Shown piece after piece: positions 18,150 through 19,306 of a DNA stretch of 64,000 bases. Positions within the stretch are counted from its first letter, which is position 1, and each line of letters starts with the position of its first letter. Source of the stretch: Parcubacteria group bacterium (lineage in GTDB: Bacteria; Patescibacteriota; Minisyncoccia; Moranbacterales; UBA11712); assembly GCA_041659685.1 (NCBI GenBank), contig JBAZXV010000001.1, forward strand, positions 178,771-242,770, in the 5' to 3' direction. The position numbers and the translations under genes were made by a program. The notes below the pieces were generated by a model that was not told the origin of the DNA, ran no database searches, and worked only from the letters and a program-made list of their open reading frames with translations.

Positions 18150-18295
18150 AAAATCCTTCTATATTGCCAGTTTCCCTAATTTAGGCGCAGTCGAGGACCG
18201 TCCTCAACTGACTTGCTTTTAATTTTAGAGGGCGTTAGAAGATAAATACTGGGGGAGGAATAGCGCCAACGAACCATTCCTCCCATAATCTCCCC

Positions 18296-18523
18296 TTAAG
18301 GATTTCTCTTTTTCATTGCCAGCGCCAGGACTTCTTCCGGACTCATACCGAAGTCCTGTGGTAACGGCTTGCCGCTTTGCGACACGTGGATCTTCTCGTC
18401 GAGTGTCTGGGGAACGAGAATGAGAGTGTATTCCCGTCCGGTCGCTCGCTCAAATGTGGCAAGCGCGTCGTTCAACCTGATTAGAGCCGCGTCACATTCC
18501 GGACCAAGATGAAAAAATCCCAT
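18296..18523 (-). CDS. Hypothetical small protein (75 aa) in a GC-rich patch
   Basis: ORF with a GC content clearly above that of neighbouring genes. No motif recognised. Confidence 0.3.
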   Translation of the reverse strand: MGFFHLGPECDAALIRLNDALATFERATGREYTLILVPQTLDEKIHVSQSGKPLPQDFGMSPEEVLALAMKKRNP

Positions 18524-18570
18524 ACCTCACTCACCTCCTTTGGATTCAGCTTGGGGTTGAAGAGAAAATC

Positions 18571-18804
18571 CTACGCCGCAAGCGCAAGCGGCATTTCCTC
18601 TTTTTCCGCCTTTCCCCTTTTTTCCTCCGGATCTGACGGAAAATCGCAGGCTGGAAACATATGAACCTTAAATACGAGCAACCGGCCCCTCTCCCACACC
18701 TGGACTGAGCCTTGGTAGCAATCGCCGGGTTCGATATATTTGCAGCACATGTCGCACCAGTGCTCGATTTGAGCGATATGCTGGAACGTTCGAAGTATCC
18801 GCAT
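18571..18804 (-). CDS. Hypothetical small cysteine-rich protein (77 aa) in a GC-rich patch
   Basis: Contains HWCDMCCKYIEPGDCYQG and is GC-rich. Confidence 0.3.
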   Translation of the reverse strand: MRILRTFQHIAQIEHWCDMCCKYIEPGDCYQGSVQVWERGRLLVFKVHMFPACDFPSDPEEKRGKAEKEEMPLALAA

Positions 18805-19306
18805 ATTTTCTCCTCCCTTTGGAAATTCGAATTGTGCAACATTCTTAAATTGTTGATTTAATAGTAATATATCGCGGGCTTAAAGTCGAATTTGGCGTTT
18901 TGACAAAAGCACTTTTTTTTGCGAGTATTAGAATCAAGTGGTCATAGAAAATTTTTGAGGAGGTGATAACTAATTTGCGAAAGACGATCTTAACGCTTGA
19001 AAGGGATTAGCCCGGCGGGCCACACCTAGGGCACTCGAAAAAAGGTGGAGCAGGTTCCCATTCTCCTTCGGGAGGATTAGGCCCCGCGCCGCAAAAGAGC
19101 CACCCAGCTGACTGGAAATCGTTCACTTGATCCATTTGGGCTGGAGAGAGTGAAGACACCACCGGCGACGCCAGTTAGCGAACGGAGGGGAAATGGCAGG
19201 CGCCTAAGGTTTCGCAATTCTCCGAATCATGGCCACCAAGGGAGAGTAATTGCTTTATGCAGCATCAAAGCAATGTCCAATACTCTCCAGTTTTTTATTA
19301 TTACTT

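Follow-up and report, generated by a model that had tools for sequence, protein, structure and literature searches.

Folded leader RNA between promoter and start codon of prfA in a clade of Patescibacteria, a candidate transcription attenuator

The synthesis of release factor 2 (RF2) from prfB involves programmed +1 frameshifting at an in-frame UGA. To our knowledge, very little is known on the regulation of release-factor levels outside of this frameshift, no riboswitch is known for prfA, the gene of release factor 1 (RF1), and almost nothing is known on RNA-based regulation in the candidate phyla radiation (CPR)/Patescibacteria. The reduced genomes of these bacteria leave little room for non-coding DNA. 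In the literature we found neither a leader RNA or riboswitch of prfA nor a CPR riboswitch of such kind. The present analysis concerns a stretch of 64,000 nucleotides (nt) of a Parcubacteria group bacterium (GenBank assembly GCA_041659685.1, contig JBAZXV010000001.1, positions 178,771 to 242,770 of the forward strand), hereafter referred to as the window, and in particular a folded leader RNA of about 300 nt that lies between the promoter and the start codon of prfA and is followed by a predicted terminator. The proteins of the window are recorded as "MAG: Parcubacteria group bacterium" (MAG, metagenome-assembled genome; locus tags WC831_00990 and WC831_00995; 291-kb contig), and according to RF1 the closest relatives are Moranbacteria-type CPR genomes.

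Two Logan contigs (L007 and L008) align with the window from the gene of a 77-amino-acid (aa) protein through the non-coding region into prfA, and the statistics on the RNA rest on these three sequences. The RF1 proteins of the window and L007 are 87% identical, and their genes share 50% identity at the 98 four-fold degenerate sites of prfA and 57% in the spacer 18805-18895. The RNA region, in contrast, is 85% identical, the RNA core 86%, and the 3' half of the terminal hairpin together with the U run even 97%. L008 is more distant (63% in the core), yet the fold is kept. The first-pass annotation had seen no convincing open reading frame (ORF) in 18960-19250 and had considered a non-coding RNA possible. 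Both suggestions were borne out: the ORFs of this stretch have other frames and boundaries in L007 and L008, none being kept in the two contigs, so that a protein-coding function was rejected, and the stretch is structured and behaves like a functional RNA with respect to conservation and covarying pairs.

RNAalifold predicted a consensus of 90 pairs in 14 helices, in which 91.8% of the cells pair, compared with 34-45% if the partners are slid by one to three columns. Both sides have changed in 16 of the 90 pairs, compared with 1-4 in the slid controls; in shuffles 6.3 +/- 2 pairs showed such double changes and none out of 500 reached 16. The closing helix P1 is present in the single-sequence minimum free energy (MFE) fold of all three copies. 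The C(UUCG)G hairpin that had been noticed in the first inspection (CTCC-TTCG-GGAG at 19063-19074, close to GGCCCCGCGCCG at 19080-19091) is indeed present and covaries (AUUCUCC/GGAGGAU, GUCCUCC/GGAGGAU and GUCUCCA/CGGAGAU). The G.U pairs in P1 as well as the energy and covariation terms of RNAalifold speak for the plus and not the minus strand. A minus-strand RNA acting as leader of the 77-aa gene was rejected, since P1 then gains C.A mismatches, the covariation term becomes positive and the U tract is missing. We consider it very probable that the prfA leader contains a real structured RNA on the plus strand which is under selection, irrespective of how it acts.

The RNA appears to be without a described family. 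At gathering thresholds, the 4227 models of Rfam 15 matched two tRNAs only in the 64-kb window, and at E<=10 the segments 18100-19400 and 18930-19310 (381 nt) as well as L007 and L008 produced only noise (miRNA and snoRNA models, 14-22 bits). ARAGORN detected neither a tRNA nor a tmRNA in the region. The lack of an Rfam match, which had initially been expected to count against an RNA, was thus indeed found, whereas the second expected counter-sign was not, as relatives do not carry the sequence as ordinary intergenic DNA.

In fact the RNA seems to have been added to a pre-existing arrangement of promoter and gene. A block TTTTGACAA-N-TTTGCGAnTATTAG is conserved in the RNA-bearing window, L007 and L008 as well as in five species without the RNA (L012-L016), in which it directly follows the rpmE terminator and is located 10-25 nt upstream of the prfA ATG. 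Being common to RNA-bearing contigs and RNA-less species and close to the prfA ATG, this block is taken as the prfA promoter. Since the RNA-less relatives carry the same promoter 10-25 nt from the ATG, the approximately 360 nt between promoter and start codon in the window (roughly 18946-19306) represent a clade-specific insertion, which occurs in a narrow clade only. None of 80 species-representative (GTDB) prfA loci has a long or GC-rich prfA leader, and neither nhmmer nor a covariance model (CM) of the RNA found a match in them; the RNA is also absent at the loci of the RF1 relatives P0057 and P0039. Judged by the promoter spacing, transcription would start at about 18935-18937, just upstream of P1, which would follow after about 2 nt. 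A second promoter for prfA was visible neither by reading the sequence nor in a generic scan.

The gene prfA actually starts with the ATG at 19307. The upstream TTG at 19250, which would extend RF1 at its N-terminus, was rejected as a start codon because its frame is not that of prfA in L008 and because 120 homologues begin with MKSQ. No Shine-Dalgarno (SD) sequence is present within 20 nt upstream of the ATG, unlike in the genes of the 75-aa, 77-aa and NUDIX proteins, which possess clear GGAGG-type sites. In the RNA-less relatives (L012-L016, positions of about 2990-3003) the conserved promoter leaves a prfA leader of only about 6-25 nt. Translation of RF1 in this lineage hence seems to proceed from an mRNA with almost no leader, and the SD-less prfA of the window fits this arrangement.

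The predicted terminator downstream of the folded domain is built from two 8-bp stems stacked on each other, the 3' internal loop GUCCAA being invariant, and its U6 tract ends 10 nt upstream of the prfA ATG. The 3' half of the hairpin and the U run are 94-97% identical in the three copies, and the element is absent in all relatives without the RNA. A generic terminator scan missed the hairpin and its U6 tract, its limits for stem and loop being too tight.

The leader combines three of the features by which an attenuator is recognised, namely the position in the 5' leader, a covarying putative sensor domain (in the three sequences) and a predicted terminator made of a stem and a U tract. Transcription from the conserved prfA promoter (-35 at 18900) would start almost exactly at P1, and the transcript would fold into the multi-helix domain of about 300 nt (18938-19236) before RNA polymerase meets the predicted hairpin-plus-U6 terminator (19241-19296). 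Read-through must deliver RF1 and PrmC, since prfA is essential and neither another promoter nor an SD sequence is found downstream. If the domain is folded, with P1 and H2 closed, the terminator would form; if it is not folded, an upstream strand would pair with the 5' side of the terminator and RNA polymerase would pass. Candidates for this competing strand are GUGAAG (19150-19155) and AUUCUCC (19218-19224). In the pairing of 19150-19155 with 19253-19258 all 18 of 18 cells can pair, including two double changes (U-A to C-G and A-U to G-C); the terminator's own 3' strand is invariant, and the two double substitutions are not compensated in the terminator stem. As this pairing would cross P1 and H2, it would be exclusive with the folded domain. 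The second candidate, which would pair with GGAGAGU (19242-19248) and place the 3' strand of P1 in the loop, is weaker in L008.

Taking into account the promoter, the domain closed by P1, the terminator and the SD-less essential gene without room for a promoter, conditional termination is the best explanation. With moderate confidence, we therefore propose that the leader RNA acts as a riboswitch-like conditional transcription attenuator of prfA-prmC, a proposal which includes the presumed activity of the terminator, the presumed switch and any ligand to which the latter may respond.

Several points weigh against this proposal. The three copies recovered all derive from the same locus in close relatives, and the covariation statistics are therefore weak; furthermore, the structure was derived from the same sequences used to test it. 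The core of L008 (63%) is no better conserved than the flanking spacer (68%). The MFE z-scores are unremarkable (about -1 to -1.8), hence it is conservation and covariation, rather than thermodynamic stability, that speak for the RNA. Many alternative helices with two "covariations" arise by chance in an alignment of three sequences, which leaves the anti-terminator a mere candidate. The prfA promoter site was missed in the generic promoter scan. The gene context suggests no ligand or binding partner. Riboswitch classes are normally located upstream of several genes in many taxa; a recurrence of the RNA before functionally related genes in several taxa was not observed, as all three copies precede prfA. 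A regulatory need that is limited to one small clade would also be odd for a universal gene.

Table 1. Predicted and observed features around the prfA leader (positions refer to the window)
Feature	Position	Strand	Basis
NUDIX gene	17712-18149	-	Pfam NUDIX, E=3e-19
GC-rich hairpin GUUGAGGACGGUCCUCGAC (minus strand), spacer upstream of the NUDIX start codon	18190-18208	-	sequence; present in MFE fold of 18150-18300(-)
Terminator-type hairpin GGGAGGAAU...AUUCCUCCC directly 3' of the 75-aa gene	18253-18284	-	fold
75-aa gene, small Patescibacteria protein family; predicted helix, two strands, helix	18296-18523	-	
77-aa gene, putative Zn-binding small protein, C-terminal ...LAA	18571-18804	-	coding-type substitutions, family conservation
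prfA promoter: -35 TTGACA (18900-18905), extended -10 block TGCGAGTATTAG (18920-18931)	18896-18931	+	assigned by conservation in 8 species
Structured RNA domain, about 300 nt, closed by P1	18938-19236	+	RNAalifold consensus of 3 sequences; pair counts and controls
P1, 10-bp closing helix: GUGGUCAU.AG with UCAUGGCCAC	18938-18948 with 19227-19236	+	
H2: GGAGGUG with CACCACC	18959-18965 with 19157-19163	+	
Mini-ORF 1 (doubtful): SD-like GAGGAGGUGAU, TTG start, 11 codons, TAG stop	18975-19010	+	sequence, alignment
Three-hairpin domain including the C(UUCG)G hairpin	19010-19092	+	
Long hairpin	19104-19144	+	
Candidate anti-terminator GUGAAG, pairing with CUUUAU 19253-19258 (5' side of terminator upper stem)	19150-19155	+	3 sequences
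3' domain	19165-19215	+	
Intrinsic-terminator-like element: 48-nt hairpin (19241-19288), G, U6 (19291-19296)	19241-19296	+	folds
Mini-ORF 2: ATG..TGA, 17 codons, stop overlapping the prfA ATG as ATGA	19257-19310	+	sequence, alignment; weak
prfA (RF1)	19307-20374	+	Pfam PCRF and RF-1; N-terminus aligned with 120 homologues
prmC, downstream of prfA	20371-21264	+	

Alternatively, the RNA might be an independent small or stable non-coding RNA, either trans-acting or part of a ribonucleoprotein, which is placed behind the prfA promoter, ends at its own terminator and has a function unrelated to RF1, with prfA being expressed by leak-through. A closed P1 at the extreme 5' end combined with a terminator is what one would expect of a discrete RNA some 360 nt long, and both the size and the number of helices are above those of most riboswitches. 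High-GC islands in AT-rich genomes are furthermore typical of stable RNAs, and the presence of the RNA varies among close relatives like that of an accessory gene. However, a constitutive terminator 10 nt before an essential gene without SD sequence should be strongly counter-selected, yet the element persisted while synonymous sites became saturated. No second promoter that could supply prfA is visible, and no copy of the RNA was found elsewhere in the window or in 549 kb of DNA from relatives, in which the CM of the RNA core detected three copies only (144-174 bits; next best 13 bits). We regard such an independent RNA as unlikely. In the window, the only other CM match (55630-55733, minus strand) is weak, with 13.3 bits and E 0.16; it is placed within long, overlapping ORFs of GC-rich coding sequence and is probably due to chance.

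According to another explanation, which we rate as unlikely, a selfish or mobile element (MITE-like, i.e. resembling miniature inverted-repeat transposable elements, intron-like, or a remnant of the guide-RNA type) resides in the prfA leader, and the similarity between the copies reflects recent spread or the element's own needs. The RNA is an insertion relative to sister species and variable among close relatives, and the rpmE-prfA spacer is a hot spot of accessory DNA. The similarity of the left junction CATAGAAAA to the right junction TATGAAAA might reflect a degenerate duplication of the target; the putative duplication (ATAGAAAA / ATGAAAA) is visible only through alignment. Introns are, moreover, common in Patescibacteria (PMC13011429). 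Nevertheless, the divergence of the flanking 77-aa gene and prfA parallels that of the copies, in agreement with vertical inheritance, and no transposase, reverse transcriptase or homing-endonuclease gene is attached. Terminal inverted repeats were not found and the element is single-copy in the window and the 549 kb, so that it is not recognisable as a MITE or a derivative of an insertion sequence (IS). Blastn against phage and plasmid collections gave no match, viral scans for the conserved RNA blocks gave nothing apart from one chance match in a coding region, and a metagenome scan with an invariant 20-mer returned 0 matches. No signal of RF00029 was detected at E<=10. A group I intron was rejected, as RF00028 did not match at E<=10 and a G is missing at the right junction (..UUACUU|AUG). 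The nearest candidate for a 3' G (19290) is an A in L008, which rules out a precisely excising group I intron, and an intron-type pairing of P1 with the internal guide sequence (GUCAU/GUGAU) would be possible in the window and L007 and not in L008.

Control by a leader ORF appears very improbable to us. A ribosome on mini-ORF 1 or 2 would stall or terminate depending on the supply of release factor and would then remodel the RNA or re-initiate on prfA, resulting in feedback by RF1, for which the autoregulation of prfB at an RF2-specific stop codon provides a precedent. Despite sequence turnover, an SD-like run, a TTG and 8-11 codons with a stop are kept in all three copies. The stop of mini-ORF 1 in the window is the RF1-specific UAG and lies at the foot of helix H4, and mini-ORF 2 overlaps the prfA start as AUGA, a coupling that would help the SD-less prfA. 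However, neither peptides nor lengths nor stop codons are conserved: in L007 and L008 mini-ORF 1 comprises 8 codons and ends with UAA, which can be read by either factor. Its SD-like GGAGGUG run is also one strand of H2. The SD-like GGGAGAG and the start codon of mini-ORF 2 are located inside the terminator hairpin, and its ends vary; in L007 it ends 12 nt before the prfA ATG, and L008 has no ATG at this place. A covarying fold of 300 nt is furthermore not needed for such a mechanism, and mini-ORF 1 is about 230 nt away from the terminator.

A non-functional, decaying gene or RNA fragment that looks structured through its GC richness would fit the modest MFE z-scores and the lack of a known family, but it is highly unlikely in view of 85% identity against 50% at neutral sites, 16 compensatory pairs, indels that are not multiples of three, a precisely preserved terminator and an intact promoter.

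Two further observations concern the fold of the leader RNA. Three invariant blocks are complementary to each other, namely CCAUUUGG(R)C (19133-19141), GGGAAAUGG (19187-19195) and the terminator loop GUCCAA (19275-19280), and could form a pseudoknot or alternative long-range contacts; since the blocks never vary, covariation is no test of such contacts. Furthermore, an alternative helix of 19108-19115 with 19171-19178 can be drawn in the window (CUGACUGG/CCAGUUAG), in L007 (CUGGCUGG/CCAACCAG) and in L008 (CUGCAG/CUGCAG). This helix competes with the hairpin 19104-19144, would cross H2 and may represent a second conformer.

The first-pass annotation had treated the RNA as part of a GC-richer patch between the NUDIX gene and prfA that contained two small orphan ORFs and a non-coding stretch, the latter possibly a foreign remnant. 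The patch is real: the GC content of 18160-19250 amounts to 0.491 compared with 0.434 for the window, which is within the top 5% of equal-sized windows. However, it is composite, since the excess is due to the non-coding core 18936-19240 (0.53, top 3.5%) and to the genes of the 75-aa (0.52) and 77-aa (0.53) proteins, three separate pieces divided by AT-rich spacers (0.33). The patch consists of three independent units, two small-protein genes and the folded RNA before prfA, each of which was found elsewhere without the others, so that the idea of a single coherent or foreign patch had to be abandoned. With regard to the RNA, selection and the intact order of promoter, RNA, terminator and ATG argue for a working element instead of a remnant. 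Both small ORFs exist as described, including the Cys-rich HWCDMCCKYIEPGDCYQG in the 77-aa ORF, but they are not orphans, as they belong to families of at least 236 clusters (77 aa) and 32 clusters (75 aa).

The size of the 77-aa family (representative clusters at E<=1e-3) emerged from an exhaustive HMMER search, while a word-indexed search had given two relatives only. In an alignment of 48 sequences A11, C17, C20, I24, Y30 and H48 are invariant, and C53 and the terminal Ala-Ala are kept in at least 90%. Comparing the window, L007 and L008, codon position 3 is 50-63% identical and positions 1 and 2 are 83-90% identical. No match was found in Pfam or PDB, and 21 of the 48 members match phrog_7314, the function of which is not known. 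Family members almost always end with Ala-Ala, often with ...LAA as in the ssrA tag, following an acidic linker of the DPEEE type. This end is presumably a ClpXP-type degron, by analogy with the known ssrA tag. The CxxC...H...C metal site, the acidic tail and the ssrA-like C-terminus apparent from the protein sequence suggest a small Zn protein built for degradation. At 17 other family loci from metagenomes the family member stands alone in unrelated contexts. A link between the RNA and the 77-aa protein was rejected, as such an RNA is absent at 17 of 17 of these loci.

The 75-aa protein has 31 further homologues (55-79% identity) among the 32 clusters of its family, most of which are without a taxon name; both clusters that carry one belong to the Patescibacteria. 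The family alignment comprises 15 invariant columns, and no match was obtained in Pfam, NCBIfam, PHROGs, PADLOC or the PDB sequences. The neighbouring genes differ at every locus examined, and the loci share only the gene and about 70 nt at the DNA level, by which a mobile unit around the gene was rejected. In L001 and L003 hairpins of other sequences (GAGAGAAUGG/CCAUUCUCUC and GAGGGAACG/CGUUCCCUU), each followed by a U-rich run, occupy the same place after the gene. The hairpin after the stop codon thus differs in sequence between the window, L001 and L003 while its pairing is kept by covariation, which makes the 75-aa gene a self-contained monocistronic unit. In the Patescibacteria contig L001 unusually long non-coding gaps (655 and 428 nt) flank the family gene (4001-4225), which is located 655 nt downstream of a gene for an IS200/IS605 TnpA (Y1_Tnp; 2669-3346). 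In the ENA contig L003 a free-standing LAGLIDADG homing-endonuclease gene (858-1457) lies 2.5 kb upstream of the family gene.

The two genes stand side by side only in the clade of the window (window, L008 and L112), the contig of L112 ending before the position of the RNA, and L001, L003, L005 and L009 possess the 75-aa gene but not the 77-aa gene. A toxin-antitoxin or defence pair was rejected due to the lack of Pfam, NCBIfam and PADLOC matches and of an obligate pairing. The two small genes are separate accessory genes in the variable cargo region between rpmE and prfA, outside of the RNA element.

Minus-strand cargo is variable between rpmE (L31) and prfA, where it has a hot spot (window 15177-18900; L012-L016, L108, L111, L112; maps of P0037, P0038 and P0041). 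In the window the cargo comprises genes for a PQ-loop protein, a metallophosphoesterase, a 129-aa protein, an AAA_18 kinase and the NUDIX, 75-aa and 77-aa proteins, and in relatives a HAD protein together with an asparaginase, an acetyltransferase, DUF1653, or none; in several species the rpmE terminator directly adjoins the prfA promoter. Of the two nearest relatives according to RF1, the one with 88% identity carries NUDIX, an 87-aa gene and a gap of 505 nt before prfA (502 nt in the window), and that with 87% identity carries rpmE, a PQ-loop gene and a gap of 100 nt. Relatives at 78-80% identity have gaps of 81-254 nt without the RNA and with cargo such as acetyltransferase, DUF1653 or asparaginase. 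The NUDIX gene does not simply adjoin prfA in relatives, as had been envisaged, since the cargo differs with each lineage.

With a 300-nt fold under selection, an essential translation factor directly downstream and a terminator as the predicted output, the leader is a concrete and testable candidate for a new class of regulatory RNA. It would also provide a natural case in which a whole sensor-plus-terminator module was inserted before a gene that relatives express from a leader of 10-25 nt. The furthest-reaching version of this idea, which we consider improbable, is that the RNA is the founding member of a new class of large RNAs setting the synthesis of RF1 (and PrmC) in cis, with a portable sensor-plus-terminator cassette having been inserted between a nearly leaderless gene and its promoter; in this case it would be the first known riboswitch-like or termination-status sensor of prfA. 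Should the element turn out to be a stable RNA unrelated to this role, or a mobile element that was domesticated, it would still merit an entry in family databases as a structured RNA that is so far unclassified. Of lesser weight, the 75-aa and 77-aa families, the latter with its ssrA-like ...AA end, extend the list of CPR microproteins that lack annotation.

Among the known systems, miniature insertion elements such as Correia, ERIC, RUP and BOX are likewise short, non-coding, promoter-proximal insertions adding hairpins or a terminator to a host transcript. The leader RNA, however, has no terminal inverted repeats, is single-copy as far as seen, is folded more elaborately and shows compensatory evolution. 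Like the group I introns of Patescibacteria (PMC13011429), it is a structured and patchily distributed insertion of about 300-400 nt in a transcribed region of a CPR genome, but it possesses a terminator, is located in the 5' untranslated region and not in a tRNA, rRNA or coding sequence, and has neither an RF00028 signal nor a conserved 3' G. The orphan large RNAs raiA, OLE, HEARO/IsrB omega RNA, ROOL and GOLLD are similar in size range, possess many helices, have no known role and were found via GC content and covariation. In contrast to the leader RNA, with its three copies, no linked protein and no match to an Rfam model, they are widespread and often tied to particular proteins or mobile elements.

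The leader RNA would share with the autoregulation of prfB (RF2) that the synthesis of a release factor is set in cis by a device located at the start of its own gene, feedback by RF1 being a hypothesis here. The frameshift, however, takes place inside the coding region without a large fold, whereas the prfA leader is non-coding, structured and equipped with a predicted terminator. From riboswitches and T-box-type attenuators, such as the T-box, cobalamin and lysine leaders of Firmicutes, the leader RNA differs in that it has no match in Rfam including these three families, occurs at one locus of one small clade, exceeds most aptamers with its approximately 300 nt and would control prfA. Like them, it is located between promoter and start codon, forms a GC-rich island in an AT-rich genome and presents a multi-helix domain closed by P1 directly before a predicted intrinsic terminator, together with a plausible competing upstream strand.

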